Below, piece by piece: positions 3,237 to 58,853 of a stretch of 64,000 nt of DNA (position 1 is the first letter of the stretch; each line of letters opens with the position of its first letter). The translations under genes were made by a program, and so were the position numbers. Source of the DNA: Escherichia coli. GTDB taxonomy: Bacteria; Pseudomonadota; Gammaproteobacteria; Enterobacterales; Enterobacteriaceae. The stretch lies in NCBI RefSeq assembly GCF_029227855.1, contig NZ_CP074356.1, one strand, 5' to 3'. The notes beneath the pieces were generated by a model. That model was not told the origin of the DNA. It was given only the letters and a program-made list of their open reading frames with translations, and made no database searches.

Positions 3237-4028
3237 TTACATCGCGTTCAGACGTTTTTGTGCCTGTTTAGCGCCATCAGTACCAGGGTATTTACTGATA
3301 ACCTGCTGGTATACGGCTTTCGCTTTTGCGGTGTCACCTTTGTCCTGCATGATGACGCCGACTTTAAACATCGCATCTGCAGCCTTTGGTGACTTCGGAT
3401 AGTTTTTTACTACCGAAGCAAAATAGTACGCCGCATCATCTTTTTTACCCTTGTTGTAGTTTAACTGACCCAGCCAATAATTGGCGTTTGGCAGGTAAGT
3501 TGAATCAGGGTAATTTTTGATGAAATTCTGAAATGCCACCATTGCGTCATCCTGGCGGGATTTATCCTGCACCAGCGCAATTGCTGCATTGTAATCCGTG
3601 TTTGCATCGCCGCTTTTCACCGGCGCGCCAGCATTCGCAGTACCAGCATCAGCTGTCGGCGTCGTTGATGCCGCCGCACCGCTTTGATCACCGCTGGTTG
3701 ATTGCGCCGCTGCACCACCGCTGCTGAGGCTGTCGATCTGCAACAGGATCTGCTTTTGCCGCTCCACGACCTGATTCAGTTGATACTGATTTTCCTGAAT
3801 CTGGCCACGCAGGGAATCAATATCGGATTGATTATCAGAGAGTTGTTGCTGGAGTTGGGTTAAAAGCTGGCTGTGAGCATTTGAAATACGCTCAAGTTGA
3901 GTGACGCGGTCTTCGACCGAGCCTGAGCCGACACTACTGATTGGTGCCTGAGCAAAAGCGGCCCAGGGGGCCGCTATACCAACCAGTAACGACAGACTCA
4001 ATAGTTGATGTCTGAAGTTACTGCTCAT
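3237..4028 (-). CDS. cpoB: Cell division coordinator CpoB (YbgF), TPR-repeat periplasmic protein
   Basis: 263 aa, signal peptide, coiled-coil Q-rich N-terminus and TPR-like C-terminus; downstream of pal. Confidence 0.9.
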   Translation of the reverse strand: MSSNFRHQLLSLSLLVGIAAPWAAFAQAPISSVGSGSVEDRVTQLERISNAHSQLLTQLQQQLSDNQSDIDSLRGQIQENQYQLNQVVERQKQILLQIDSLSSGGAAAQSTSGDQSGAAASTTPTADAGTANAGAPVKSGDANTDYNAAIALVQDKSRQDDAMVAFQNFIKNYPDSTYLPNANYWLGQLNYNKGKKDDAAYYFASVVKNYPKSPKAADAMFKVGVIMQDKGDTAKAKAVYQQVISKYPGTDGAKQAQKRLNAM

Positions 4029-15013: not shown

Positions 15014-15463
15014 ATGAAGAAAGCAACACTTGTGATTGGCGTTATTGGCGCGGACTGCCATGCAGTAGGCAATAAAGTTCTGGACCGCGTTTTTAGCAAC
15101 CATGGCTTCAGAGTCATTAATCTGGGCGTAATGGTCAGCCAGGACGAATATATTGATGCTGCCATTGAAACTGGTGCTGACGCGATTGTCGTCTCCTCTA
15201 TCTATGGGCATGGCGATATCGACTGTCTGGACATGCGCGAACGCTGCATCGAGCGTGGACTGGGGGACATCCTGCTCTATGTGGGCGGTAACCTGGTGGT
15301 CGGAAAACATGACTTCGCTGACGTGGAAACCAAATTCAAAGAGATGGGATTTGATCGCGTCTTTGCCCCAAGTCATGACTTAGAAGATGTTTGTCAGCTG
15401 ATGGCCCACGATATCAACCAACGTCATGACGTTGATACTCGTATTCTTGAAGAGGCAATCTGA
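15014..15463 (+). CDS. glmS: Glutamate mutase sigma (S) subunit, B12-binding
   Basis: [21 protein letters not shown]: the DxHxxG cobalamin-binding motif of methylaspartate mutase S; AGGA RBS 7 nt upstream; start chosen at internal ATG of the track ORF. Symbol follows clostridial glutamate mutase usage, not glucosamine-6-P synthase. Confidence 0.85.
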
Positions 15464-16851
15464 TGCAAATCGTCTCTGTCGATATTGGATCGACGTGGAC
15501 CAAAGCAGCCCTCTTCGCCCGGGAGGGGGACGCGTTAACGTTGGTTAACCACGTACTGACCCCAACCACCCCCCATCATCTGGCGAAGGGGTTTTTCTCC
15601 AGTCTGAACCTGGTGTTAAACGTAGATGATGCCCTCCCCCTGTTTAACAGCGGTGAGGTTGCATTGAAGTATTCCTCCTCTGCCAAAGGTGGGCTGGCGG
15701 TTGCCGCAATGGGATTGGTGCCTTCTATCACCCTGGAAACCGCGAAAGTAACCGCTCACTCTGCGGGGGCTAAAATTGCGCAATATTACGCCTACAAGCT
15801 GAACCGCCGTGATATCCAGGCACTGGAAGAAACGCAGCCCGATATTCTCTTGTTCACCGGCGGCACCGACGGCGGAGAAGAAAGCTACGGCCTGAATAAC
15901 GCCCGTGTGCTGGCAGAATCCAAACTCGACTGCGCCATTATTTATGCCGGAAACCGGGATATTCAGGACAAGGTGCAGGAGATCCTAGGGCATAAAGACC
16001 TGACCATCGTCGACAACGTTCTGCCCGATCTTGACCATCCGAACCCTTTAGCTGCACGCCAGGCTATCTGCGACATATTCCTTAAACGCATCGTTAAAGG
16101 GAAAGGGCTGGATGTCGTTGTTGATAAAACAGGCGAAGAACCAATGCCGACACCGTGGACAGTCTTTGAACTGGTTAAGGCAATCAGTAATGTCGATCAC
16201 AGCTGGAAAGAGTTCATGCTGATCGACATGGGCGGCGCAACCACCGATGTCTATTCCGCCTGTGCCAACACGCTCTCGCCCGACACCGTTTTACACGGCG
16301 TACCGGAACCCTTCGTGAAACGGACGGTGGAAGGCGATCTGGGAATGCGCGTCTCGGCAATGGTGGTTGGTGAAAGTGCGAAAGAGTTAGTCAATGTGAA
16401 TTTTGCTCAGCAACCCGCACAGCTGGACGCTTTTTATCATTACCTCCGTCATCTAGTCGCTCATCCCGACTACTTACCCGCGAATTCAGAAGAAAAATAT
16501 TTCGATACCGTCCTGGCCGGACTGTGTGTGGGTTATGCCACCGAAAGACATGCGGGCACCAAAAAAGAGGTCTGCACCTGCGTCGGCAATGTCGATTTAC
16601 AGATGGGACGTGACCTGACAACCGTGCGTAAAGTCGTCGGATCCGGCGGATGGCTCTCGCGTGCCAGTCAGTTCGATATGCATCACTGGTTGAAATACCG
16701 CAAGTTAAACGACGACGGTAAACGCATTCTCTTACCGACCGAATTTGAATATTACCGCGATTCCCGGGGGCTATTACCATTGCTGGCAAACGTCGCCAGA
16801 GTCGATCCGCTGGCCGCCGCGCGCACCAGTATTCAATGCTTAACCCTATAA
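15463..16851 (+). CDS. glmL: Glutamate mutase L component (MutL/GlmL reactivase-like protein)
   Basis: 462 aa ORF between S and E subunits as in clostridial operons; ATGA overlap with the S subunit. Confidence 0.75.
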   Translation: MQIVSVDIGSTWTKAALFAREGDALTLVNHVLTPTTPHHLAKGFFSSLNLVLNVDDALPLFNSGEVALKYSSSAKGGLAVAAMGLVPSITLETAKVTAHSAGAKIAQYYAYKLNRRDIQALEETQPDILLFTGGTDGGEESYGLNNARVLAESKLDCAIIYAGNRDIQDKVQEILGHKDLTIVDNVLPDLDHPNPLAARQAICDIFLKRIVKGKGLDVVVDKTGEEPMPTPWTVFELVKAISNVDHSWKEFMLIDMGGATTDVYSACANTLSPDTVLHGVPEPFVKRTVEGDLGMRVSAMVVGESAKELVNVNFAQQPAQLDAFYHYLRHLVAHPDYLPANSEEKYFDTVLAGLCVGYATERHAGTKKEVCTCVGNVDLQMGRDLTTVRKVVGSGGWLSRASQFDMHHWLKYRKLNDDGKRILLPTEFEYYRDSRGLLPLLANVARVDPLAAARTSIQCLTL

Positions 16852-16869
16852 CAATTAAGGCTGCAATCA

Positions 16870-18315
16870 ATGGAACTTCGAAATAAGAAATTAACCCATG
16901 ACGAATTCATGACCGAGCGGCAACAGGTACTGAAAACCTGGGAAACCGGCAAGGATGTTGAAAACTTTGAAGATGGCGTTAAATACCAACAAACCATTCC
17001 TGAGCATAAACGCTTCTCTCTTGCGCTGTTGAAAGCAGACAAGGAAGGTAAAACCCTTAGCCAACCGCGCGCAGGTGTGGCGCTGATGGACGAACACATC
17101 GAACTACTGAAAACACTACAAGAAGAGTGCGATCTGCTGCCGAGCACTATCGATGCATATACCCGTCTGAATCGGTACGAAGAAGCGGCTGTAGGGATTA
17201 AAAAATCCATCGAAGCCGGAACCTCTAAACTGAACGGTTTGCCGGTAGTTAACCATGGCGTCGCAGCTTGCCGTCGCCTCACCGAAACCCTGCAAAAACC
17301 GCTACAGATCCGCCACGGCACGCCAGATGCGCGTCTGCTGGCTGAAATCTCGATGTCCAGCGGCTTTACCAGTTACGAAGGCGGCGGCATTTCCTACAAC
17401 ATTCCGTATGCCAAACGCGTAACGCTGGAAAAATCGATCCGCGACTGGCAGTACTGCGACCGTTTAATGGGGATGTATGAAGAACACGGGATCCGCATCA
17501 ACCGCGAACCGTTTGGCCCACTAACAGGTACGCTGATCCCGCCGTTTATCTCGCACTCTATCGCGATAATCGAAGGCTTGCTGGCGCTGGAACAGGGTGT
17601 GAAATCTATCACCGTTGGTTATGGACAGGTCGGCAGCCTGACGCAGGATGTTGCGGCGATCCAGTCTCTGCGTGAACTTGCACACGAATATTTTCAGAGC
17701 TATGGCTATACCGACTATGAATTAAGTACCGTGTTTCACCAGTGGATGGGCGGCTTTCCGGAAGACGAATCGAAAGCGTTCGCTATTATCTCCTGGGGCG
17801 CAGCCGTCGCGGGGATGTCTGGTGCCACCAAAGTCATCACCAAAAGCCCGCACGAAGCCTGGGGTATCCCGACTGCCGCTGCCAACATTCAGGGGCTGAA
17901 AGCCTCCCGCCAGATGCTCAACATGGTCAACGAGCAGAAATTCCCGCCGTGCCCTGCGGTTGAACTGGAAATTGAACTGATTAAGAGCGAGGTTCGCGCG
18001 GTACTGAATAAAGTGTTCGAACTGGGTAATGGTGATATTGCGCGCGGTACGGTGCTGGCATTTGAAGCGGGCGTACTGGATGTGCCGTTTGCGCCAGCCG
18101 CCTGCAACGCGGGCAAAATTCTTCCGGTCCGTGACAACACCGGCGCGATACGCGTACTGGAAGCCGGAGCCGTTCCATTGCCAAAAGATATTCTCGACCT
18201 CCACCACGATTACGTTGCTGAACGCGCACGCTTTGAAGGACGCCAACCGACATTCCAGATGGTTGTAGATGACATCAATGCTGTATCCCACAGTAAATTA
18301 ATAGGAAGACCATAA
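16870..18315 (+). CDS. glmE: Glutamate mutase epsilon (E) catalytic subunit
   Basis: 481 aa, size and gene order match methylaspartate mutase E. Confidence 0.8.
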   Translation: MELRNKKLTHDEFMTERQQVLKTWETGKDVENFEDGVKYQQTIPEHKRFSLALLKADKEGKTLSQPRAGVALMDEHIELLKTLQEECDLLPSTIDAYTRLNRYEEAAVGIKKSIEAGTSKLNGLPVVNHGVAACRRLTETLQKPLQIRHGTPDARLLAEISMSSGFTSYEGGGISYNIPYAKRVTLEKSIRDWQYCDRLMGMYEEHGIRINREPFGPLTGTLIPPFISHSIAIIEGLLALEQGVKSITVGYGQVGSLTQDVAAIQSLRELAHEYFQSYGYTDYELSTVFHQWMGGFPEDESKAFAIISWGAAVAGMSGATKVITKSPHEAWGIPTAAANIQGLKASRQMLNMVNEQKFPPCPAVELEIELIKSEVRAVLNKVFELGNGDIARGTVLAFEAGVLDVPFAPAACNAGKILPVRDNTGAIRVLEAGAVPLPKDILDLHHDYVAERARFEGRQPTFQMVVDDINAVSHSKLIGRP

Positions 18316-19556
18316 TGAAAATAAAACAGGCCCTTTTTACCGCTGGCTACTCCTCATTCTATTTCGATGACCAGCAGGCGATAAAAAACGGAGCGGGTCA
18401 CGACGGTTTTTTTTATACCGGGGAGCCAGTAACACAGGGGTTTAACGCCGTACGTCAGGCCGGGGAGTGCGTATCGGTACAGTTGATTCTGGAAAACGGC
18501 GCGGTCGCCGTAGGTGACTGTGCTGCCGTACAGTATTCCGGGGCAGGCGGTCGCGATCCACTGTTCCTCGCGGAGCACTTTATTCCGTTCCTCAACGACC
18601 ATATCAAGCCATTACTGGTAGGCCGCGATGTGGATGTTTTCCTGCCGAATGCCCGTTTCTTCGACAAATTGCGTATTGACGGCAACTTGCTGCATACCGC
18701 CGTGCGCTACGGATTATCACAGGCTCTGCTTGATGCTACCGCGCTGGCAACCGGCCGTCTGAAAACTGAAGTGATCTGTGATGAATGGCAGTTGCCACGC
18801 GTGGCGGAATCCATTCCATTATTTGGTCAGAGCGGGGACGATCGATATATCGCCGTCGATAAGATGATCCTTAAGGGCATCGACGTGCTGCCCCATGCGC
18901 TGATTAATAACGTCGAAGAGAAGCTGGGCTTTAAAGGTGAAAAACTGCGCGAATATGTCCGCTGGTTGTCGGATCGCATTCTGAGCAAGCGCACCAGCGC
19001 ACGCTACCACCCAATCCTGCACATCGATGTATACGGCACTATCGGTCTGATCTTCGATATGGATCCGCTTCGCTGTGCGCAATACATCGCCAGCCTGGAA
19101 AAAGAAGCGCAAGGCCTGCCGCTCTACATTGAAGGGCCGGTCGATGCCGGTAACAAGCCCGATCAAATTCGCCTGCTGACCGCGATTACCAAAGAGCTGA
19201 CGCGCCTCGGTTCCGGCGTGAAACTAGTGGCCGATGAATGGTGTAACACCTACCAGGATATTGTTGATTTCACAGATGCCGCCAGTTGCCACATGGTGCA
19301 AATCAAAACCCCGGATCTGGGCAGTATTCACAACATCGTCGATGCAGTTCTTTATTGCAACAGCCACAGCATGGAAGCGTACCAGGGCGGCACCTGCAAT
19401 GAAACTGATGTCAGTGCCCGCACCTGTGTCCACGTCGCCCTTGCCGCTCGCCCCATGCGTATGCTGGTAAAACCAGGGATGGGCTTTGACGAAGGCCTCG
19501 ATATCGTCTTCAACGAAATGAATCGTACTATCGCGCTGTTGCAGGCTAAGGATTAA
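18315..19556 (+). CDS. mal: Methylaspartate ammonia-lyase (beta-methylaspartase)
   Basis: 413 aa; N-terminus MKIKQALFTAGYSSFYFDDQQAIKNGAGHDGF matches the enolase-superfamily methylaspartase N-terminus; start overlaps the glmE stop. Confidence 0.85.
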   Translation: MKIKQALFTAGYSSFYFDDQQAIKNGAGHDGFFYTGEPVTQGFNAVRQAGECVSVQLILENGAVAVGDCAAVQYSGAGGRDPLFLAEHFIPFLNDHIKPLLVGRDVDVFLPNARFFDKLRIDGNLLHTAVRYGLSQALLDATALATGRLKTEVICDEWQLPRVAESIPLFGQSGDDRYIAVDKMILKGIDVLPHALINNVEEKLGFKGEKLREYVRWLSDRILSKRTSARYHPILHIDVYGTIGLIFDMDPLRCAQYIASLEKEAQGLPLYIEGPVDAGNKPDQIRLLTAITKELTRLGSGVKLVADEWCNTYQDIVDFTDAASCHMVQIKTPDLGSIHNIVDAVLYCNSHSMEAYQGGTCNETDVSARTCVHVALAARPMRMLVKPGMGFDEGLDIVFNEMNRTIALLQAKD

Positions 19557-19559
19557 CAA

Positions 19560-20930
19560 ATGGCTCGTTCTTTTAAAGTCTTATCGCCAACGGCAATCCT
19601 CGGGTATGGATTCCCGGAAGAGAGCTTCCGCAAAGCGATGGCAGAATCGCCCGATCTGATCGCCGTTGATGCAGGCTCTTCCGATCCTGGCCCCCACTAC
19701 CTCGGGGCGGGCAAACCGTTTACCGATCGCGCAGGGGTCAAGCGCGATCTGCGCTATATGATCACCGCAGGCGTGCAAAATAATATACCGGTGGTGATCG
19801 GAACGGCCGGCGGTTCTGGTGCCGCTCCACACCTGGAGTGGTGCCGAGAAATAATTCATGAGATTGCCCGGGAAGAGCACCTCTCGTTCTCGATGGCGTT
19901 GATCCCGGCAGACGTTGACAAAGCCATCGTCCACCAGGCGCTGGATAACGGCAAAATCACGGCGCTGGAGTTTGTCCCGCCGTTAACCCACGACGCGATT
20001 GACGAAAGTACGTATATCGTTGCGCAAATGGGCATCGAACCCTTCCAGCGGGCGCTGAAAGAAGGCGCGCAAGTGGTGCCGGGCGGGCGCGCTTACGACC
20101 CGGCCTGCTTTGCTGCGCTTCCGATCATGCAAGGCTTTGATGAAGGTCTGGCGCTTCATTGTGGGAAAATCCTTGAATGCGCGGCAATCGCCGCAACGCC
20201 CGGCTCAGGCTCTGACTGTGCGATGGGCATCATTGATGACAACGGCTTTACGCTGAAGACATTTAATCCGAAGCGTAAATTTACCGAAACGTCAGCAGCT
20301 GCACACACACTGTATGAGAAATCCGATCCCTACTTCCTGCCTGGACCTGGCGGCGTGTTGAACCTGAAAGGCTGCACATTTAAAGCGGTCAATGACAGCG
20401 AAGTGTACGTCAGCGGTTCTAAGCATGAAGAAACGCCGTATTCCCTGAAACTGGAAGGTGCGCGACGGGTGGGCTTCCGCTGTCTGACCATCGCAGGAAC
20501 GCGCGACCCGATCATGATCGCCGGGATCGATAAAATCATCGATGAAGTCAAAACCAGCGTTTCGCGTAACCTGTCGCTCGACGATGACAGCATTCACATC
20601 AATTTCCACCTGTACGGCAAAAACGGGGTGATGGGCGACCATGAACCGATGCAAACTGCCGGGCATGAGCTGGGGATTGTCCTAGATGTAGTTGCGCCGA
20701 CCCAGGAAATTGCCAACAGCGTTTGCTCGCTGGTGCGCTCTACTATGCTGCACTACGGCTATGAAAACCGCATCGCTACCGCAGGCAACCTGGCGTTCCC
20801 GTTCTCCCCTTCTGATATCCAGGGCGGGCCGGTATACGAATTTTCCATATATCACCTGATTGAAGCCAACGACGCTCTGCGTTTTGATTTCCATATTGAA
20901 CAGGTGACGCCAGAAGGAGTTCAGGCATGA
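19560..20930 (+). CDS. Conserved protein of unknown function (possibly DUF1446/AtuA-like)
   Basis: 456 aa, starts 4 nt after mal; family assignment is from memory of N-terminal pattern only. Confidence 0.5.
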   Translation: MARSFKVLSPTAILGYGFPEESFRKAMAESPDLIAVDAGSSDPGPHYLGAGKPFTDRAGVKRDLRYMITAGVQNNIPVVIGTAGGSGAAPHLEWCREIIHEIAREEHLSFSMALIPADVDKAIVHQALDNGKITALEFVPPLTHDAIDESTYIVAQMGIEPFQRALKEGAQVVPGGRAYDPACFAALPIMQGFDEGLALHCGKILECAAIAATPGSGSDCAMGIIDDNGFTLKTFNPKRKFTETSAAAHTLYEKSDPYFLPGPGGVLNLKGCTFKAVNDSEVYVSGSKHEETPYSLKLEGARRVGFRCLTIAGTRDPIMIAGIDKIIDEVKTSVSRNLSLDDDSIHINFHLYGKNGVMGDHEPMQTAGHELGIVLDVVAPTQEIANSVCSLVRSTMLHYGYENRIATAGNLAFPFSPSDIQGGPVYEFSIYHLIEANDALRFDFHIEQVTPEGVQA

Positions 20931-21244
20931 AACAGTCAATTGTCTCACTGGCGCAAGTCATTCGTTCGAAAAATGCCGGACCTTACGAACTGGTTTTAGA
21001 TATTTTATTTAAAACGAAAGAAAACTATGAGCGAGTTAAATCATCAGGGCAATTAACCCCAGAACTGATTGCGCGCTTATATCATGTTGAACCTGACTTT
21101 ATTCACCGTATTGTCTGGTTTGATCCTTCTAACGCAGTAAAAATCGTCATGCCACGAGATATTATCTCCGGGAATGTAGGTGACAATGATGTCTATGGTG
21201 CACAGCAACATGCACCTTTATTAAATATGAGTTTCGATTTGTAA
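20927..21244 (+). CDS. Small conserved protein of unknown function (possibly DUF4387-like partner)
   Basis: 105 aa, ATGA overlap with the preceding gene. Confidence 0.5.
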   Translation: MKQSIVSLAQVIRSKNAGPYELVLDILFKTKENYERVKSSGQLTPELIARLYHVEPDFIHRIVWFDPSNAVKIVMPRDIISGNVGDNDVYGAQQHAPLLNMSFDL

Positions 21245-21327
21245 AAATCCGAATACTTTTAGCCAACTGACATCCCGTCACTTATTGCAGTTCAACACTT
21301 CAGCTATTTGTAAGGTTGTAATAGCAG

Positions 21328-21359
21328 GTAGATGCCTGAATCTCTATTCAGGCATCTAC
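21328..21359 (+). terminator. Perfect 14 bp inverted repeat; candidate terminator or operator between operon and transporter gene
   Basis: GTAGATGCCTGAAT-ctct-ATTCAGGCATCTAC followed by T-rich ttctcctgattctgattt. Confidence 0.55.
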
Positions 21360-21404
21360 TTCTCCTGATTCTGATTTATCGCCGTGCACCTGATGGAGGA
21401 AAAA

Positions 21405-22685
21405 ATGAAGAAAATAAGTTTAACCACGATGATTCTTTTGGCGCTGGTACTTGGAATGATTATCGGCGTAGTGCTCAATAACACTGCTTCACCGGAAACC
21501 GCAAAACTCTATGCGCAAGAAATATCGATATTCACGACGATTTTCTTACGACTGATAAAAATGATTATCGCTCCGTTAGTGGTCTCTACCCTGGTGGTAG
21601 GTATAGCTAAAATGGGCGATGCCAAAGCCCTTGGTCGTATTTTTTCTAAAACACTCTTTTTATTTATTTGCGCCTCATTGCTGTCAATTGCCTTAGGCTT
21701 GATAACAGTAAATTTCTTCATGCCAGGCACAGGAATTAATTTTGTTGCACACGGAGCCGAAACCACCGGAGTGGTCGCGTCAGAACCCTTTACGCTAAAA
21801 GTATTTATTTCGCATGCTTTCCCCACCAGCATTGTCGATGCCATGGCGCACAATGAAATTTTGCAAATCGTGGTGTTCTCAATTTTCCTCGGCTGTAGCC
21901 TGACGGCGATTGGCGAGAAAGGCAGCGCCATCGTTCACGCCTTAGATTCGCTGGCACATGCCATGTTAAAGCTCACTGGCTACGTCATGCTCTTCGCTCC
22001 CCTGACCGTATTCGCTGCTATTTCAGCATTGATTGCTGAACGAGGACTGGCAGTTATGGTGAGCGCCGGGATCTTTATGGGTGAATTTTATTTCACCATG
22101 TTATTACTTTGGGTGCTGCTTATCGGTCTGGCCATCGTTTATGTTGGCCCCTGCATCAGACGCCTGACCCGCGCCCTTTCGGAACCCGCCCTGCTGGCAT
22201 TTACCACATCCAGTTCTGAAGCGGCTTTTCCGGGAACGCTTGAAAAACTGGAGCAATTTGGCGTTTCCCCAAAAATTGCCAGTTTTGTCTTACCCATTGG
22301 CTACTCATTTAATCTCGTTGGATCAATGGCCTACTGCTCCTTCGCCACAGTTTTCATCGCCCAGGCCTGCAATATCCATTTATCCATCGGTGAGCAAATC
22401 ACCATGCTGTTGATCCTGATGTTGACCTCGAAAGGAATGGCTGGCGTACCACGCGCCTCAATGGTGGTTATCGCCGCCACGCTCAACCAGTTCAATATTC
22501 CGGAAGCGGGGCTGATCTTGCTGATGGGCGTTGATCCGTTCCTTGATATGGGGCGTTCAGCGACAAACGTCATGAGCAACGCAATGGGCGCTGCGATGGT
22601 GAGTCGGTGGGAAGGCGAACATTTCGGCGAGGGCTGTCGGGGTAAAGCATTAAAACCCAATGAATCGAACGTTGCTCTGCCCTGA
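21405..22685 (+). CDS. Dicarboxylate/amino acid:cation symporter (GltP/DctA family), probable glutamate uptake
   Basis: About 426 aa polytopic protein; GGAGGA RBS 5 nt upstream of ATG 21405 (track ORF starts at an upstream GTG). Confidence 0.8.
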   Translation: MKKISLTTMILLALVLGMIIGVVLNNTASPETAKLYAQEISIFTTIFLRLIKMIIAPLVVSTLVVGIAKMGDAKALGRIFSKTLFLFICASLLSIALGLITVNFFMPGTGINFVAHGAETTGVVASEPFTLKVFISHAFPTSIVDAMAHNEILQIVVFSIFLGCSLTAIGEKGSAIVHALDSLAHAMLKLTGYVMLFAPLTVFAAISALIAERGLAVMVSAGIFMGEFYFTMLLLWVLLIGLAIVYVGPCIRRLTRALSEPALLAFTTSSSEAAFPGTLEKLEQFGVSPKIASFVLPIGYSFNLVGSMAYCSFATVFIAQACNIHLSIGEQITMLLILMLTSKGMAGVPRASMVVIAATLNQFNIPEAGLILLMGVDPFLDMGRSATNVMSNAMGAAMVSRWEGEHFGEGCRGKALKPNESNVALP

Positions 22686-22792
22686 GGGGGATCTTAAGCA
22701 ATCAGAAGCCAATGACTACGCATTTTTATAAGCCGGATCATGAAGTTAGACGGCAATTAAGTAAAACTAACGTTTAAGGTGAAAAGTGAAAT

Positions 22793-24445
22793 ATGTCCAA
22801 ACCATTTATCTGGCAAGAACCGTTTCTACAAAATAAAGACGGTACAGAATATACATTAATTAGCGATCAACATATTACAGTAACGGAATTAGACGGCGAA
22901 GAAGTAATAAAAATCGCTCCTGAAGCATTAACGCTGCTTGCCCGGCAGGCATTTTATGAAGCCTCTTTTTTCTTACGTTCCGCTCATTTGCAACAGGTCG
23001 CCAGCATTCTTAACGATCCGCAGGCCAGTAGTAATGATAAATACGTTGCGTTGCAGTTATTACGTAATGCTGAAGTCTCAGCAAAAGGGGTATTACCCAA
23101 CTGTCAGGATACCGGCACCGCAACTATTGTTGCCAGTAAAGGGCAACAGATATGGACGGGAGGTAACGACGCTGAAGCCTTAAGCAAAGGCATTTACACC
23201 ACTTTTCAGGAAAATAATCTGCGCTTTTCACAAAATGCGCCACTGGATATGTTTACCGAAGTCAATACGCAAACCAATCTCCCGGCGCAGATTGATATCA
23301 GCGCCGTCGCTGGTGATGAGTACCATTTTCTCTGTATTAATAAAGGGGGCGGCTCTGCCAATAAAGCCGCGCTTTATCAGGAAACCAAATCCCTATTGCA
23401 ACCAGAAAAACTGACCGCATTTTTAATCGAAAAAATGAAATCGCTGGGCACCGCTGCCTGCCCGCCTTACCACATCGCCTTTGTCGTCGGAGGACTTTCA
23501 GCCGATCAAACCTTAAAAGTTGCCAAGCTGGCCTCAACGAAATATTACGACAATTTGCCCACCAGCGGAAACGAGCAAGGACAAGCATTCCGTGATATTG
23601 AGCTGGAAAAAGTATTGCTCGAGGCCAGTCAGCAATTTGGTATTGGTGCGCAATTTGGGGGTAAATATTTCGCTCATGATATTCGCGTCATTCGTCTGCC
23701 GCGTCACGGTGGCTCTTGCCCGATAGCTATGGCGCTCTCCTGTTCTGCGGATCGCAATATCAAAGCAAAAATTAACAAGCACGGTATCTGGCTGGAAAAA
23801 CTCGAACACAATCCGGGGCAATATATTCCAGCCTCACTGCGGGAAGAAAATCACGCGCAACATGTACAGCTGGATCTAAACCGTCCGTTGCGTGACGTGA
23901 TGCAGGATCTCGCCAGATTACCGGTAGGCACCCGCGTGTCGTTAAGTGGTCCCATCGTAGTGGCGCGCGATATCGCCCACGCCAAAATAAAAGCGCGGCT
24001 GGATAGCGGCGAACCGATGCCGGATTACCTGAAGCATCATATTGTCTATTACGCTGGCCCGGCGAAAACACCGGAGAACATGGCCTGCGGTTCACTGGGT
24101 CCAACCACGGGCGGTCGAATGGACGGTTATGTCGATACCTTCCAGGCGGTTGGCGGCAGTCTGGTGATGTTATCGAAAGGTCACCGCAGCCAGCAGGTCA
24201 CCGATGCCTGTCACAAACATGGCGGCTTCAATCTGGGAAGTATTGGCGGTGCAGCTGCGTTACTGGCGCAAGAATATGTCAAAAGTCTGCGTTGCCTGGA
24301 ATACCCGGAGCTGGGTATGGAAGCGGTGTGGATGATGGAAGTGGAAAATCTGCCCGCATTCATCCTGGTAGATGATAAAGGCAATAATTTCTTTAGTCAG
24401 TTTGAGCAGCAACACCGCTGCGCCAGTTGCCCTGCGGGACATTAA
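22793..24445 (+). CDS. fumD: Class I (Fe-S) fumarate hydratase family enzyme, probable mesaconase
   Basis: 550 aa; N-terminus closely parallels FumA ([31 protein letters not shown]); linkage to glutamate mutase/methylaspartase as described for the E. coli O157:H7 mesaconase FumD. Confidence 0.8.
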
Positions 24446-24454
24446 GGAAAATGA

Positions 24455-25057
24455 ATGGAAGCGCGAATTTCAACTGAACGGCATGTGCAGCGCCAGCAGA
24501 AATTGAAGGAACAGGTCGATACGCGCATCGCGGCGGCGATAGAGAAAAAAGGGATTTTGATTGTTTTCACCGGCAATGGCAAAGGGAAATCCACTGCCGC
24601 GTTTGGTACTGTGACGCGCGCGGTGGGTCATGGCAAAACGGTGGGGGTTGCGCAGTACATCAAGGGGCAATGGGACAACGGCGAATACAACCTTCTCCAG
24701 CCGCTGGGGGTTGAGTTTCATATTATGGGAACCGGTTTTACCTGGGAGACACAGAACCGGCAAGCGGATATCGACGCGGCGAAAGAGGTCTGGTCGGAAA
24801 GCAAACGGATGCTGGCTGACAAGCGTTACGACTTAGTGGTGCTTGATGAGCTGACCTATATGCTGGCTTACCATTATCTGGATACCGAAGAAGTGATCGC
24901 TTCTCTGCAAAACCGCCCGGCACAACAAAGTGTCATTGTCACCGGACGCGGTTGCCACAGTCAGATATTAAAAATGGCGGATACGGTCAGCGAAATCCGC
25001 CCCGTCAAACATGCTTTTGATAACGGCATTCAGGCGCAGCCGGGTATCGACTGGTAA
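24455..25057 (+). CDS. ATP:cob(I)alamin adenosyltransferase (CobA/BtuR paralog)
   Basis: 200 aa; GILIVFTGNGKGKSTAAFG P-loop and strong collinearity with E. coli BtuR. Confidence 0.85.
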   Translation: MEARISTERHVQRQQKLKEQVDTRIAAAIEKKGILIVFTGNGKGKSTAAFGTVTRAVGHGKTVGVAQYIKGQWDNGEYNLLQPLGVEFHIMGTGFTWETQNRQADIDAAKEVWSESKRMLADKRYDLVVLDELTYMLAYHYLDTEEVIASLQNRPAQQSVIVTGRGCHSQILKMADTVSEIRPVKHAFDNGIQAQPGIDW

Positions 25058-25060
25058 TAA

Positions 25061-25093
25061 CTGCGCCTGGCATCCCGCCAGGCGCAGGTTTTA
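25061..25093. terminator. Bidirectional terminator hairpin between convergent cobA-like and LysR genes
   Basis: CTGCGCCTGGC-atccc-GCCAGGCGCAG then gtttta. Confidence 0.6.
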
Positions 25094-25996
25094 CATCTCC
25101 TGCGGTACAACCGATTTCGCCAGCAACCATTCACGAAATTGCTGCAAGTGCGGTGAGTCAGACTTCTCTTCCTGCCACGTCATAATAAAACGATTACCGG
25201 TACGAATAGGCACATCACAGGGGATCACCATATCGCCACTATCCAAATCATGTTGAATAGCGAAACGTGGTAACAGCGCCACGCCGAGATTAGAGCGCAC
25301 GGCGGCAATCAGCATTGAAAGCAAATCGAAACGTGGTCCGTTGTTGACCAGTGGACTGCTAACGCCAGATAAAGCAAACCACTCTTCCCAGCCAGTAATA
25401 CGGGTGCTTTGATGCAGAAGTGGTAACTCAGTAAGCAGTTCTGCCACTGACAGTTTTTGATCGGACATTGCAAGCAAACTGCCGCTGCATACCGGCAAAA
25501 TCTCCTCATCAAAGAGATATTCTACTTCCGCCCAGGGCGCGCAAAAATTTTCGCGCATAATGACAGCATCGTACTCCCGATTAAGAAAATCGCCGTTATT
25601 AGCTAAAGAGTGAATATTAACAATAATATCGGGATGTAACTTTGTGAATTCATGTAAATTTGGGATTAACCAGTGGGTACTAAACGTAGGATTCACGGCA
25701 AGTTCAATAACCTGAACCGTAGGCTGCCAGGTCATAATAGTATTGGTATCGCGTTCCAGCTTATTTAATGTTTCTTTTACTATCCCCAGGTAATACTTCC
25801 CTGCATCATTAAGAAAAATACGTTTTTTAGAGTGTGAAAATAACGGAGTATGTAAAAATTCCTCCAGCGCACTCACTTGTCTGAATACAGCACTTTGGGT
25901 TAACGCTAACTCCTCTGCCGCTCTGGTATAACTTTCATAACGTGCGACGACCTCAAAAGTCACCAGCAGCTCCGTTTTAGGTATTTTTCCTCGCAT
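25091..25996 (-). CDS. LysR-family transcriptional regulator
   Basis: N-terminal HTH (TRAAEELALTQSAVFRQVSALE) and LysR substrate-binding domain; start at ATG 25996 with RBS; divergent from the RtcB-like gene. Confidence 0.85.
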   Translation of the reverse strand: MRGKIPKTELLVTFEVVARYESYTRAAEELALTQSAVFRQVSALEEFLHTPLFSHSKKRIFLNDAGKYYLGIVKETLNKLERDTNTIMTWQPTVQVIELAVNPTFSTHWLIPNLHEFTKLHPDIIVNIHSLANNGDFLNREYDAVIMRENFCAPWAEVEYLFDEEILPVCSGSLLAMSDQKLSVAELLTELPLLHQSTRITGWEEWFALSGVSSPLVNNGPRFDLLSMLIAAVRSNLGVALLPRFAIQHDLDSGDMVIPCDVPIRTGNRFIMTWQEEKSDSPHLQQFREWLLAKSVVPQEM

Positions 25997-26585
25997 AATT
26001 CCGTCCGTGAAAAAATAACAATTCAAAAATTATTTTATAAAAAACAGTAGCACTAATGAATATCATAATTCAAATAAACAAACCAGTCAGCTATATGTCT
26101 AACCAGGAAAATAAAGTGACAATAATCCTAAAACAGGAATTTCACCTCAGTTATCCGCATGCAATACTTTAAAGCTATTATTGCAAGAATATTATTCATA
26201 TACATGAATATACTCTAAATAAGTCAAGTTGCAGGAAGGGAACAAATAATGAATTTCCAGAAGCTTACATAAGTAAGTGACCTGAGTGAGCGAACATCGA
26301 TGCAGCACATGCAACTTGAATTATGACAAGTATACAATGATAAATTTATATACCCTATGTTATATATTATCTATGTCCGGTTAAATTGAATGAGTCATGG
26401 CCTTAAAAGACTTCACAAAAGATAATTCCTCTTTAACAATAAGCCAGATTTACCACTTGTAAAACTTGCTATCGCCACATACACTACGCGCGTTTTCTTT
26501 CCCTTTTGCTGGCTGCTGACCGGAAAGACAAAATTACCCTCGCAATACAGGGGGTTGTTTAACGTCTATATTTCAGGACAGCGTT

Positions 26586-27983
26586 ATGCATCATCTTTCA
26601 AGGCTTGATAAAGCCTTTCTGCGCAAAGGGATCCAACTTTCCCGCGCCAACAATATTGTTTCATTATCTCGTCCATCAGGTGCCAGTGCCCGCGTACTGC
26701 TGCCGGACGAACTGCCGCTGGAAGAAAAAGCAGTAACACAACTGCTTGATTTTGCAGAAGTGAAGCTACCAGACCACCCAGGTTATGTGCGCCAGACGTG
26801 CGCGACGCCAGATTTTCATCCCGGCAATGGCGTCCCCGTTGGCGCGGTGGTGGCCTCAACGCCGGATTTAGTCATTCCCGCCGCCATCGGCACCGATATT
26901 TCTTGTGGCATGCGGCTGCTGACGACCGGATTAACACTTGAGCAAGCCGAAGCGCATAAAGACATCATCGCTCAGCGGTTAACGCAAGTGCTGCTGCAAA
27001 ATGAGCGCGATGTTCCGTTATCCGCACAGGCGTTCACTGCGCTTTTTGATGGCGGACCGGCAGATTGCGTGTCGACCTTGCCATCAGCAGGTCTCTGGAC
27101 ACGCACGAATATCCCCCGAATGGTACAAGAGATTGACTGCTGCATTGGGCTTAACGAGCATAACAGTCATTCGCGTTATGCCCCACCCGCCCTGCTGGCA
27201 ACGGACCGCGCATTACTCCGCGATCCTTGTCTGGGTACGCCGGGTTCAGGTAATCATTTTATTGAACTTCAGGTCGTTGATAGCGTGGTTGATCGCCATG
27301 TAGCCTGGCAACAAGGGCTGAAAACAGGCGATATTGTGGTGATGATCCACAGTGGATCGCGAGATGTTGGCTTTTACGTCGGAAGACGCTGGATGGATCG
27401 CGCCCGTGCTGAATGGCCCACCGGACATAAACATCCACAAAGCGGGTTATATGGTCTGGCAGGCGGACTGGCGGAGGAATATCTACAAGCGATAGGAATG
27501 GCTGCGCGTTACGCGTGGTTAAATCGCGTCACAATTGCCGAAATGGTGCGCGTATGTCTCGCCAATCTCTTTCATCAGGACAATTCGCATCTGGTGGTGG
27601 ATGTGCCGCATAACATCATCCTTCGCGAGCATGAAATGAATATTCATCGCAAAGGTGCAACACCGGCACGAGTGGGCGATCTGGCATTAATCCCCGGTTC
27701 AATGGGCGATTATTCGTGGCTTGCAGTCGGTTGCGGCAACCCGGAGTGGCTGTGGTCATGCAGTCACGGAGCAGGACGCAGCCAGCGTCGACAGGCCATG
27801 CGCTCAAGCGCGACTGAAGAGTCAACGCTGCCGTGGCAATGCGTCACATTGCGTGAAGAACGACGTCTTGAAGAAGCGCCAGCGGCTTATAAAGATATTG
27901 GTCCGGTTATCGAAGCCCAACAAGAAGCCGGATTAATTCAACCAGCGGTCAGATTTCGACCGTGGTTAACGTTTAAGGGGTAA
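26586..27983 (+). CDS. RtcB-family RNA ligase paralog (stand-alone)
   Basis: 465 aa with RtcB signature blocks DISCGMRL, GSGNHFIE, MIHSGSRDVG, HRKGATPARVGDLALIPGSMG, CSHGAGR, APAAYKDIGPV; all metal/GMP-binding Cys/His positions appear conserved. Confidence 0.8.
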   Translation: MHHLSRLDKAFLRKGIQLSRANNIVSLSRPSGASARVLLPDELPLEEKAVTQLLDFAEVKLPDHPGYVRQTCATPDFHPGNGVPVGAVVASTPDLVIPAAIGTDISCGMRLLTTGLTLEQAEAHKDIIAQRLTQVLLQNERDVPLSAQAFTALFDGGPADCVSTLPSAGLWTRTNIPRMVQEIDCCIGLNEHNSHSRYAPPALLATDRALLRDPCLGTPGSGNHFIELQVVDSVVDRHVAWQQGLKTGDIVVMIHSGSRDVGFYVGRRWMDRARAEWPTGHKHPQSGLYGLAGGLAEEYLQAIGMAARYAWLNRVTIAEMVRVCLANLFHQDNSHLVVDVPHNIILREHEMNIHRKGATPARVGDLALIPGSMGDYSWLAVGCGNPEWLWSCSHGAGRSQRRQAMRSSATEESTLPWQCVTLREERRLEEAPAAYKDIGPVIEAQQEAGLIQPAVRFRPWLTFKG

Positions 27984-28066
27984 CTGAAATGATAAATGGC
28001 CTGCGGTTCTCACGCAGGTCAAATCTGGTATCTGCGTAAGCTAACAAACTTGTTTATCAACAATCT

Positions 28067-28088
28067 CAGGCCATCCGAAGATGGCCTG
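28067..28088. terminator. Hairpin between convergent RtcB-like gene and mngB
   Basis: CAGGCCATC-cgaa-GATGGCCTG, 9 bp stem. Confidence 0.5.
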
Positions 28089-28127
28089 AAATTATTGCCC
28101 CCCTTAGATACACTTTTAGCGCAATAA

Positions 28128-30761
28128 TCAGCCAAGGCGGTAGCTAAATGTCCGTGACTGCCCCGGTAAAAATGCCCCCAGTTCCTTTAAATTATCTCTT
28201 TCCGCTGTGCTGATGCTTTCATCCATCATCGTTTGCGTACATGAAATCACCTCACGACTGAACGCGACAGTTGCCTCACAGGTTGTCGATTCTGCCGGAT
28301 TAAACAGTCGCAATACCACTTCTTGCCGGTCTTCCGCTTTTTTAAGAGCGCTAATCAGGCATCCCACAGGGGGCATTTTCAGCAAGCTATAGCTTTCCGG
28401 CACATTGAATCCGGCTTTATTTAACTTCATCGCATCCCACGGGATTTTGTTGTAACACTGTACTGGCGTCAGCCATGCACGCGCCTGCTGGGCTACACCG
28501 GCGGTCGAAGGCGTACCTGTATAACTAAATAAGCTCAGACGGCAGCTAAAGGAGCCACGTAATTGTGAATCGGGCACCGGCATTTTTATACCCGAAGGAC
28601 GTCCAGGCCTTAAAAGCAGATCTTCTTTCCCCAGTAAGCCCACGCCACGCAGCAACGTAATGGCAAAGGTTTTCTTCTCTTCACCGATGACTTCGAATTC
28701 ACGTAGCCCTTCGCTAAAGACAGCCAGACCGTTACGCCCTTCCTGTAAGGCAGCATAGTTGAGCATATTCCATACCGGAACAGGCGCTTCTTTCCAGCCT
28801 TCTTGTTGCCAGACATCCATCGCACTGTCGCTCACCGGGCGCGTTAGCGAACCAAACTGGGTATCGGCCAGAACATTGTCGGTGTTGAAAGGTGTAGGGA
28901 CCAGGACGCGAAGGCGATGATCGTCAGCCTGGTTATCAAGGTTGATAACCACATCAATGCGCCTGCTGTTATCACTCAGAGTGACAACCAACTCCACCCC
29001 TACTCTACCCGTGCATTGCCGTGCGCTGCGTTCTTGTAGATTACGCGGCACCGCCATGTCATAGCGGATAACAGCCCTGCTCTGCCAGGCCTCATGAATA
29101 ATCTCGCATTGCGGTTTCGCATTCGCCGAAGTAATTACCCACTCTTCTTTTGCAGGTGAATAGTCATATTCATCACCATCATCAGAGCTTTCTTCAATTT
29201 GCAATACCCGGTCATAGCGCACACCGCTGTCTTTATCTACCAGTTGTAGCGTTCCATCCTCATTGAGCGCAATTTGCCAGAAAGCATTTTCCAGTATCCC
29301 TTCAGCGTCACTTTTTGCCGCAATCACGTTGCCAGGCTGATTCGTTTCGATATAAAGCGTGCGATAGCCCATAGAAGGGACAATCTGGTTGATCTGAATA
29401 TCAAACTCCATAAAGGGATCGTAATTACCGTAATGAACGATTTGCCGATCGATTAGGCCAGGATCGATCTCACGGGCATGGCGAATAAAATACGGTACAG
29501 GCTGACCGCGATCGTCCCGCAAATTAAACTGGCTAGCGCGCAGCCGCACAGTGGTGTTGATCACTTCTTCCCGCGGCCAGGGCATCAGGTTAAACAGCAC
29601 AAGTTTGTCGGCATCACTCTGTGGCATGTTATCGGCAATTTTGCGCATGTAGAAACGAATCAGATTATCCGCCATGTCTTCAGCCAGTTCGAAGCGGGCG
29701 ACGATTTCGCGATGAACTTTGTCACTGCAACAACAACCGATACTGTCGTGGGCATGATTTTTTAAGATCTCTTTCCACATTTTCTCCAGCAAGCCGTGGT
29801 GGTATTCAAAACCTAAAGTCCAGGCCAGTGTTGCCAGCGGTTCCAGCAGATTAACAATCTTATTTTCAATACGCGCGTGGGCAATTTTGATATCCATGCG
29901 CGTGGAACCGATGGTGCGATGCACGCGCATATATTTGCCATCGATAAATTCACCTTTCAGAGTCGCCAGATTATCTCGCTGCGCTTCAATCTGCTCGAAT
30001 ACCTCTTCAAAGCGGCTCATCACAAACTTTCGTTGAGGATAAATTTCGCGAAGTTTCTCCATCACTTCGAAGATATTTTGCTGCAATGGCATCTGATCAT
30101 GACCATTCGGCAATAAAATTTCTTTGGTTACTGACGCTTTTTCCAGCACGTCAAAATAACTGTCGAGACGTTTGCGTAATCCGTCTTCGTCGGCAGGTAA
30201 GTACTTACCGATGGCGTAGCCCAGCGGCAGCACCTGCGCCGTCACTTCGCTACCATCACTGCTTTGCCACAAAAACTCGGTTTTATCAGTACCGTGGCGC
30301 TCAGAACATCCGCGCCAGAACATGGTGCGGGTAATGCCAAATCCATTGTAAATATGCGGCAGTTGCTCGGACATGCCAAAGGAATCTGGTAAATAACCTA
30401 TTTTCATCGGCTCGCCAAACGCGAGGCAGTCACGCATTCCGTACATCAGATTACGGACGATGGATTCCGCAGAAACAATCGTGGTATCGGTCTGGGTATA
30501 CCAGGGGCCGATAATCAACTTACCGGCTTCTACCAGTTTCTTCACGCGCTCTTTGTTTTCCGGTTTCACCGCGAAATAATCTTCGAGGATCGCCGTTTGC
30601 CCGTCGAGTACGTAATATTTGTATTCGTTGTCCTGTTCCAGTCGGCGCAGGATCTCTTCCATATTATTGACCAGCAGAATGCGTGACTCTTCGGTGGTGA
30701 AATACCACTCCCGATCCCAGTGCATATGCGGGGTGATGTGAACGCGAGATACCGCTTTCAT
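28128..30761 (-). CDS. mngB: Mannosylglycerate hydrolase (GH38 alpha-mannosidase)
   Basis: 877 aa; [21 protein letters not shown]; synteny with mngA/mngR. Confidence 0.95.
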
Positions 30762-55727: not shown

Positions 55728-57392
<1,665 letters not shown>

Positions 57393-57434
57393 CAGGCCAG
57401 CACCGATGCCTGATAAAACGCTCGCTGCGTTTTA

Positions 57435-58853
57435 TCAGGCTCCTTTCCTCGCTTCTTCGTACGCTGCCAGCGTTCGCAGCCTTGCCTCTTTGTGATCAAC
57501 TATCGGTTGCGGATAATCCAGCGTCACACCTGCTTTCTGCGCCCACTTCCACGGCTCATGCACCACTTTCCCTGGCACATCGCGCAGTTCCGGTAGCCAC
57601 TGGCGGATAAACTCGCCTTCGCGGTCAAATTTCTCGCCCTGGGTTGTCGGGTTAAAAATACGAAAATACGGCGCTGCATCGGTTCCGGTTGAAGCGGCCC
57701 ACTGCCAGCCACCGTTATTAGCTGCCAAATCACCATCAATCAGCTGCGACATGAAATATCGCTCGCCTTCGCGCCAGTCGATCAACAAATCTTTCACCAG
57801 AAAACTGGCTGTAATCATCCGTAGCCTGTTATGCATCCAGCCAGTGCTGTTAAGCTGACGCATGGCAGCATCGACAATCGGGTATCCCGTTTTGCCTTCC
57901 TGCCAGGCCTGTAAATGTGCGGGATTGCTCTGCCACTGCACACGATCCGTCCAGGCAATAAACGGACAATGTTTACACAACGAGGGGTAATACGTCATCA
58001 GATGACGGTAGAACTCGCGCCAGATCAGCTCACTAAGCCAGACACTACCGGCCCCACCGTCCAGCGCCTGCGGCTGTTCCGCCAACAGGCGATGCAGACA
58101 CTGGCGAGGCGATAACCCGCCCGTTGCCAGGCTGGCGGACAAACGGCTGGTACCTTCAACAGCCGGAAAATCTCTTTGTTGCTCATACTCTCCGGCACCG
58201 TTCTGGCAAAACTGGCGTAATTGCGCAATCGCCGCTTTTTCTTCCACCGGGAAATGCGCAGTATCGAAAGGCTGACGAGGATAATTCAGCGTAATGGATG
58301 GCGCGGGTTCTATCATTCCGCTACTACGTACTTTTGGCGCAGCGACGCACTCCGGCATCCCTTCTCGCAGCCGTTTCAGCCAGGCATTTTGAAAAGGCGT
58401 AAAGACTTTGTACATCTCATGATTGCCAGTCATCACCGCGCCAGGCGGCAGGATCACGCTGTCATCAAATCCTTCACACACCACGTTACGCAGCGTTCTC
58501 TCAACCTGCACATCCCGCGCCCGCTCATTCACCTCATACTGATAGTTATAAAACAGATGGGTAACACGATTTTCCGCGCACACCTGTTCAACTATTTCGA
58601 CGCTGGCGGCAAAGTCATCCACTTCATGAAACAGCAAAGGAATGCCTTTTTCCGCCAGCGCGATTTGTAGCCCGTTCAGTTGTGCATTGATAAATTCAGC
58701 CTGACGCGGCGACATATTATGCGCCGCCCACTGGCGTGGTGTAGCGATATACAACGCCAGCACGCGTGCAGACGAATAGCGGCAAGCGGCAGCCAGTGCG
58801 AAATTATCGTGCAGACGTAAATCCTGGCGAAACCAGACCAGATGGGTAGTCAT
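57435..58853 (-). CDS. phrB: Deoxyribodipyrimidine photolyase
   Basis: 472 aa, MTTHLVWFRQDLRLHDNFALAAA. Confidence 0.95.
   Translation of the reverse strand: MTTHLVWFRQDLRLHDNFALAAACRYSSARVLALYIATPRQWAAHNMSPRQAEFINAQLNGLQIALAEKGIPLLFHEVDDFAASVEIVEQVCAENRVTHLFYNYQYEVNERARDVQVERTLRNVVCEGFDDSVILPPGAVMTGNHEMYKVFTPFQNAWLKRLREGMPECVAAPKVRSSGMIEPAPSITLNYPRQPFDTAHFPVEEKAAIAQLRQFCQNGAGEYEQQRDFPAVEGTSRLSASLATGGLSPRQCLHRLLAEQPQALDGGAGSVWLSELIWREFYRHLMTYYPSLCKHCPFIAWTDRVQWQSNPAHLQAWQEGKTGYPIVDAAMRQLNSTGWMHNRLRMITASFLVKDLLIDWREGERYFMSQLIDGDLAANNGGWQWAASTGTDAAPYFRIFNPTTQGEKFDREGEFIRQWLPELRDVPGKVVHEPWKWAQKAGVTLDYPQPIVDHKEARLRTLAAYEEARKGA

Follow-up and report, generated by a model that had tools for sequence, protein, structure and literature searches.

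A conserved sense-strand RNA stem-loop between the enzyme and transporter genes of a glutamate fermentation cluster in Escherichia coli

Intercistronic stem-loops that stabilize mRNA are known from the REP hairpins between malE and malF of Escherichia coli and from the hairpins of the Rhodobacter puf operon. The inverted repeat described here, which lies between a DUF4387 gene and a gltP-like transporter gene in E. coli, shares with them a stable sense hairpin set in a long operon gap without a good U-tract, and a position between genes for abundant soluble proteins and the gene of a membrane transporter. Unlike the malE-malF REP or the puf hairpins, it occurs as a single copy, fails to match a REP profile, and is conserved in place across genera by compensatory change. 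Its likeness to REP/BIME elements extends to a stem base of GCCTGA...TCAGGC, to flanking GTAG and CTAC and to a transcribed intergenic location, but there is neither a significant profile match nor another copy in any genome examined. Intrinsic terminators and leaky intra-operon attenuators also present a stem-loop followed by a pyrimidine-rich tail at the boundary of functional gene blocks, and the Yersinia counterpart of the element is canonical in this respect; the E. coli stem, in contrast, is long, with a G+C content of 43% (6 of 14 pairs), its tail fails the rule of five T in eight positions, and most relatives have no U-tract. Finally, the relatives resemble riboswitch-type leaders in that they carry several covarying helices and invariant unpaired blocks just upstream of the transporter Shine-Dalgarno sequence, but this region has no match in Rfam, any switch in it is putative, and a single helix is left in the E. 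coli copy. The element is a single-locus example of a familiar class of hairpins and is of a fairly ordinary kind.

The repeat was found in a 64,000-nucleotide stretch of an E. coli genome (the window, to which positions refer unless stated otherwise), in an accessory cluster that is annotated by RefSeq, on an identical copy, in the order glmS-glmL-glmE-mal-atuA-DUF4387, hairpin, gltP-like transporter-fumD-cobO, with a convergent LysR gene next. The cluster corresponds to glutamate fermentation by the methylaspartate pathway, in which a class I fumarase acts as the mesaconase FumD (Kronen and Berg; PMC4682846). The genes of GlmS, GlmL, GlmE, methylaspartate ammonia-lyase and the AtuA/DUF1446 protein (15014-20930, +) are tightly packed, and the DUF4387 gene (20927-21244, +; Z0890 in strain EDL933) is the last before the hairpin. 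The 160-nt DUF4387-transporter intergenic region (21245-21404, +) is the sole long gap of the cluster, the other gaps upstream of the hairpin measuring 0-18 nt. Beyond it comes the gltP-like transporter gene of the DAACS family (21405-22685, +; Z0888 in EDL933), whose product is a dicarboxylate/amino acid:cation symporter and whose start, at 21395-21407 (+), comprises a Shine-Dalgarno sequence GGAGG (21395-21399) and the ATG at 21405. It is followed by fumD, coding for the mesaconase/class I fumarase, and cobO (22793-25057, +), transcription of which must run through or past the hairpin. Because the gap is the only long one and because pathway genes continue downstream on the same strand, the repeat lies inside the cluster and not after it. 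The preliminary description had located it downstream of a mutase operon, which is misleading since the transporter gene, fumD and cobO follow directly on the same strand.

The site and its surroundings, 801 bases in all, are present in 1124 of the 5426 complete E. coli genomes, once in each. Carriers of the cluster, among them the O157:H7 strains sampled, make up about one fifth of these genomes. The cluster is also present in many opportunistic enterobacteria. The right flank of the island varies (window 25996-28200): in EDL933 the LysR gene abuts sucD, while the strain type represented by the window has a gene of the RtcB family and mngB next.

The repeat (21328-21359, +) reads GTAGATGCCTGAAT-CTCT-ATTCAGGCATCTAC. 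A repeat search returned two arms of 14 nt each (21328-21341 and 21346-21359) that are 100% complementary and separated by a 4-nt spacer, in agreement with the perfect 14-bp inverted repeat first noted at this place. The accompanying remark that exact palindromes of such length are uncommon is borne out as well, with 0.0024 perfect repeats of 14-nt arms (loops of 3-12 nt) expected per 64 kb from base composition, and a longest arm of 14 nt in just 1 of 200 local-composition shuffles. The distances originally given were essentially right, as the repeat ends 45 nt before the transporter ATG and begins 83 nt, rather than 85, after the DUF4387 stop (the gene ends at 21244). In RNA, the stem extends to 16 pairs over 21326-21361 (+) by addition of an A-U and a G-U pair at its base, and the full stem-loop has an energy of -23.2 to -23.4 kcal/mol; taken as 14-16 pairs, at -20.9 to -23.4 kcal/mol, the structure is a stable stem-loop. 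At -28.8 kcal/mol (z = -4.1), the 86-nt context of the repeat has a more stable fold than any of 200 shuffled sequences. The window's only other perfect 14-bp inverted repeat, GCCTGATAAAACGC tcgct GCGTTTTATCAGGC (57408-57440), lies between two convergent ORFs (55911-57392, +; 57435-58853, -) and matches the REP profile marginally (E = 0.076).

Within E. coli, the 44-nt core is unchanged in 610 of the 1124 records, has one difference in 482 and two or three in 32, so that the palindrome is imperfect in about 46% of carriers. Nine variants were sampled: an A-to-G change that gives U·G was seen five times (once together with two loop changes), and the others comprise A-to-G giving G·U, T-to-C giving A·C (twice) and A-to-T giving U·U. 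All nine keep the stem at -18.6 kcal/mol or better. Since these imperfect natural variants remain stable, what is kept is a stable stem, perfect symmetry not being required. A different kind of change is found in E. coli strain 100416 (L004, 2249-3000), where an IS1 has replaced the DUF4387 gene together with the left arm; beyond the IS1, the window sequence is rejoined at position 21335, with an intact transporter gene.

A DUF4387 profile scan of one genome per species yielded 80 loci, 53 of which have the same transporter gene after the DUF4387 gene. Among these 53 species, a strong sense-strand hairpin is always present at the junction: the best 44-nt sense structure in the gap averages -24.9 kcal/mol against -11.0 kcal/mol for shuffled sequences, a hairpin of -15 kcal/mol or lower is found in 48 of the 53, and 44 loci fold more stably in the sense than in the antisense strand. 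A gap of 131-170 nt is found in 31 species (of Citrobacter, Klebsiella, Enterobacter, Salmonella, Buttiauxella, Lelliottia, Pluralibacter and Raoultella) and also in one other Escherichia lineage; the hairpin there lies at the equivalent place, 45-54 nt upstream of the ATG, and differs in sequence, an example being AGCGTGCGCCTGAGC-N10-GCTCAGGCGCACGCT. All 32 aligned orthologous regions fold into a stem of 10-18 bp at this place. RNAalifold recovers the main helix (P2), to which the E. coli repeat is homologous as the core of the sense-strand RNA hairpin; 13 of its 15 pairs have changed on both sides, 93.7% of the cells are paired, and the observed covariation is reached in none of 500 shuffles. 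Sliding the 3' partners by 1-3 columns lowers the pairing of the whole four-helix structure from 94.6% to 29-45%. As read from the alignment, E. coli and the Citrobacter consensus differ on both sides in 7 of the 15 pairs, all 7 of which are Watson-Crick. The loop varies from 4 nt in E. coli to 12 nt, and the spacing of the conserved CCTGA/TCAGG cores shifts by at least 6 bp between species.

On the + strand, P2 holds 50 G·U against 12 A·C combinations, and as an A·C is a G·U on the other strand, this excess designates RNA of the + strand as the molecule in which the helix forms. When E. coli is compared with the relatives, synonymous sites approach saturation, with an identity of 0.40 (0.36-0.43 at the four-fold sites of the flanking genes), yet the helix persists; it has thus been maintained and not merely inherited. 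Selection conserves the hairpin as + strand RNA, and on this comparative evidence the repeat is the E. coli form of an RNA stem-loop kept by dozens of enterobacterial species through compensating mutations.

In other lineages, the junction takes other forms. That of Yersinia is a canonical intrinsic terminator, CGGTGCAT...ATGCACCG TTTTTT. Escherichia sp. E1V33 and E. whittamii (L008 and L009, 3319-3586) are without the transporter gene, and fumD follows the DUF4387 gene after ~270 nt; these species nevertheless retain a hairpin downstream of the DUF4387 gene, although a different one (AAATGTACCTG...CAGGTGCATTT). The terminator at the Yersinia junction and the retention of a hairpin in transporter-less Escherichia together tie the structure to the upstream 3' end. 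The common denominator is thus a sense hairpin 3' of the DUF4387 gene, the terminator character of which varies by lineage.

The relatives of E. coli have more structure in the gap than this one helix. In 30 non-Escherichia species, a second covarying hairpin (P1) is present, in which both sides have changed at 6 of 9 pairs and 57 G·U stand against 3 A·C. P2 is enclosed by a long-range helix, GGUUGG/CCARCC, whose changes are all one-sided and which has 26 G·U and 0 A·C. Unpaired blocks that are invariant, GCUGUAUCAC, UUCAUGCGGUUGGUCAC and CCCUACAC, are found in the gap of these relatives, as is the invariant block CATGCGGTTGGTCA; in the structure as it lies in loci L010-L041 (~3340-3485; for instance L015, 3319-3488), the invariant blocks are GCTGTATCAC, TTCATGCGGTTGGTCAC and CCCTACAC. 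The gap identity in the non-Escherichia group is 0.73 against 0.53 for four-fold sites. Searches of Rfam gave no family match for the E. coli region, the sub-threshold hits being chance plant miRNA precursors with E of at least 2.8, and none for that of Citrobacter amalonaticus. A covariance model built from 29 non-Escherichia orthologous regions and searched with all filters off gave one strong match in the window, at 21274-21400 (+) inside the DUF4387-transporter gap, which scores 22.5 bits against 10 bits for the next best in the 128 kb searched, on a scale where E-values are rough, an unrelated K-12 segment having scored 17 bits. That segment belongs to the K-12 nrfE coding region (L094, 881-1004, minus strand), and its nominal E-value is 0.002. 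On the bare hairpin in the opposite strand, the model scores 9.5 bits. Alignment of E. coli to the model puts the repeat in the position of P2, ~45-54 nt upstream of the ATG, and shows a deletion of P1 and non-canonical combinations at the long-range pairs.

Two further features of the gap were considered and set aside. A small ORF from an invariant ATG in the relatives is broken by loop-length indels, as inspection of the alignment shows, and an outer helix of CCGUCA (21275-21280) with UGAUGG (21391-21396, at the Shine-Dalgarno sequence) fits the model alignment, while a 6-mer of this kind is expected by chance in about half of such regions by our own estimate. In C. amalonaticus S646 (L017, ~3445-3575) and K. 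oxytoca (L028, ~3319-3520), insertions of 115-200 nt enlarge the gap and displace or split the RNA structure, which the model still detects with 127.5 and 60.8 bits. The insertions appear to resemble ERIC/IRU intergenic repeats, TCCCCAGG...GTGACTGGGG...GCAGCCAAC.

The main rival to the intercistronic stem-loop that we favor below would make the repeat the surviving helix of an undescribed cis-regulatory RNA of ~130 nt, a structured leader that would respond to a ligand, a protein or an sRNA and gate expression of the glutamate transporter through its translation or stability, E. coli keeping a reduced version. The covariation of P1, the G·U bias of the long-range helix, the several invariant blocks and the excess of intergenic over four-fold identity in the relatives all argue for such a leader, as do the absence of an Rfam family match and the top rank of the E. 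coli site in the window when searched with the relatives' model. In E. coli itself, however, P1 is missing and the positions of the long-range helix are unpaired; that helix has only one-sided changes where it exists; the regions of Yersinia, Morganella and Hafnia do not match the covariance model, nor does the K-12 gltP leader; Escherichia without the transporter retain a hairpin after DUF4387; and no ligand or alternative-pairing switch has been identified. This reading is possible, if on balance unlikely, and the three others each have less in their favor. The regulator-binding site suggested in the preliminary description would be a DNA operator for a dimeric protein, either the LysR-type regulator of the cluster or an anaerobic one, that controls a transporter promoter. 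A perfect dyad centred ~61 bp upstream of the ATG and a LysR-family gene belonging to the cluster suit this proposal, but the arm sequences covary instead of being conserved (at 7 of 15 positions, E. coli and Citrobacter disagree in both arms), the core spacing and the loop (4-12 nt) vary between species, almost half of the E. coli carriers are imperfect, and no promoter-like site is adjacent. Recognition of DNA would also leave the strand-asymmetric G·U excess unexplained. Covarying arms, a spacing of 4-12 nt and a G·U count on the + strand far above its mirror image are the signature of an RNA helix, so the suggestion was not upheld, and an operator is very improbable. A site of the FNR or CRP type, TGAAT-N4-ATTCA, was judged by eye a poor match, with a spacing that is not conserved.

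A functionless palindrome, either a decayed mobile or REP-like hairpin or one kept perfect by template-switch repair, is also improbable, though not to the same degree as the operator. The REP-like features GTAG...GCCTGA...TCAGGC...CTAC recall such an origin, and mobile DNA has landed at this junction in other strains, as the IS1 of strain 100416 and the extra 115-200 nt of L017 and L028 attest. On the other hand, queries of 160 nt and 44 nt each found a single locus per genome in 1123 genomes, the second 'place' of the 44-nt query being the palindrome matching its own opposite strand, and a dispersed or mobile element was rejected on this basis, plasmid matches having proved to be mis-typed chromosomes. 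A REP profile for nhmmer, built on 8 genuine K-12 REPs with the malE-malF pair among them, gives true REPs scores of 1e-12 to 1e-7 and is silent at 21328-21359 even at E <= 100; a REP element was rejected on this ground, and the window contains no canonical REP. Furthermore, the hairpin has stayed in place between genera in which synonymous sites have reached saturation, and template switching would not yield a G·U bias on the + strand. More probable than either of these two readings, but still doubtful, is an intrinsic terminator of high efficiency at the end of a glmS-DUF4387 operon, the transporter-fumD-cobO genes having a promoter of their own. It would account for a stable stem followed by a T/C-rich tail, for the canonical terminator at the Yersinia junction, after which comes an AT-rich stretch, and for a transporter RPKM near 0 while that of DUF4387 goes up to 18. 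Against it, the E. coli tail (TTCTCCTGATTC) has 2 U, then C, which does not satisfy the rule of 5 T in 8, and a T-score of 2.4, and the terminator scan of the gap did not call the 14-bp stem. By a score of the d'Aubenton-Carafa type with ViennaRNA energies, for which the threshold is approximate, the site has d = -10, compared with +14.4 for a tRNA-operon terminator of the window, +10.3 for the junction hairpin of Yersinia and +2.9 for the hairpin after cobO. A tail of ACCCTACAC, which lacks a U-tract, and d-scores of -22 to -65 characterize the 31 relatives. There are just 45 nt between stem and ATG, and a simple scan, which an activator-dependent promoter could escape, found no sigma-70 promoter-like site on the + strand of the gap in E. 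coli, C. amalonaticus or C. braakii.

Any termination at the hairpin should accordingly be weak or factor-dependent, given that the U-tract is poor in E. coli and absent in 31 relatives; the pyrimidine-rich tail TTCTCCTGATTCTGATTTAT (21360-21379, +) would support weak intrinsic termination at most. The initial proposal that the repeat is the operon terminator is borne out in part, in a weaker version: the presence of a sense hairpin at every junction and the canonical form in Yersinia are in its favor, while the failing E. coli U-tract and its negative d-score are not. The idea that an operon ends here fares less well, as three further genes in the same orientation (transporter, fumD and cobO) come next without a promoter-like site in between, and a better terminator lies after cobO. 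This site (25061-25087, +), situated between cobO and the LysR gene that converges on it, is a GC-rich 11-pair hairpin, CTGCGCCTGGC atccc GCCAGGCGCAG, with GTTTTAC after it; it resembles a terminator more than any other site of the region and is probably the real end-of-cluster terminator.

Strand-specific RNA-seq of EDL933 under 11 conditions found the cluster nearly silent, with RPKM values of 0-3 (PMC4048457, Table S4). Within Z0885-Z0895 (window 15014-25996), the LysR gene Z0885 reached an RPKM of 113 in LB, and the DUF4387 gene (Z0890) alone rose, to 12-18, in two conditions (PMC4048457). For the AtuA, DUF4387 and transporter genes, the RPKM values were 1, 18 and 0 at 15 °C and 1, 12 and 0 on solid LB, from very few reads (PMC4048457, Table S4). 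An excess of DUF4387 message upstream with nothing downstream is the pattern predicted by a 3' barrier or a terminator, and counts this tiny hint at it weakly.

The hairpin is real, it is conserved as RNA of the + strand, it is not a dispersed repeat, and it does not behave as a protein operator. What fits these properties best, and what we hold with about even confidence, is an intercistronic stem-loop of the sense mRNA that would act both as a leaky terminator and as a barrier to 3' exonucleases, separating expression of the enzymes from that of the transporter. The genes on its two sides are co-directional, the 160-nt gap has no + strand promoter-like site and no called terminator, and structure rather than sequence is conserved, on the transcribed strand. 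The stem-loop would stand in a long operon mRNA where the enzyme block (glmS...DUF4387) gives way to the transporter-fumD-cobO block. RNA polymerase would terminate there weakly on account of the poor U-tract, and the base of the stem would block exonucleases proceeding 3' to 5', so that the enzyme message might become more abundant and longer-lived than the transporter message, with enough read-through for fumD and cobO to be expressed. A role in termination or stabilization, of whatever efficiency, is most likely in view of the position of the hairpin, its Yersinia counterpart and the weak RNA-seq pattern. A counter-point to a simple exonuclease barrier comes from the unpaired flanking blocks of the relatives, whose conservation exceeds what such a barrier would require, with an identity of 0.77 against 0.53 at four-fold sites.

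An intercistronic stem-loop at the enzyme-transporter boundary would offer a handle on the balance between expression of the two halves of the cluster, and for annotation the palindrome should be read neither as an operon end nor as an operator. The multi-helix RNA of the relatives is a candidate new cis-regulatory RNA and a more interesting lead than the E. coli element. Elsewhere in the window, two copies of one bidirectional-looking terminator, AAAAAAGCGCC tttag GGCGCTTTTTT, are found 158 nt apart (1984-2010 and 2142-2168). The pair adjoins tRNA-like sequence on the opposite strand and looks like an ordinary feature of a tRNA operon.
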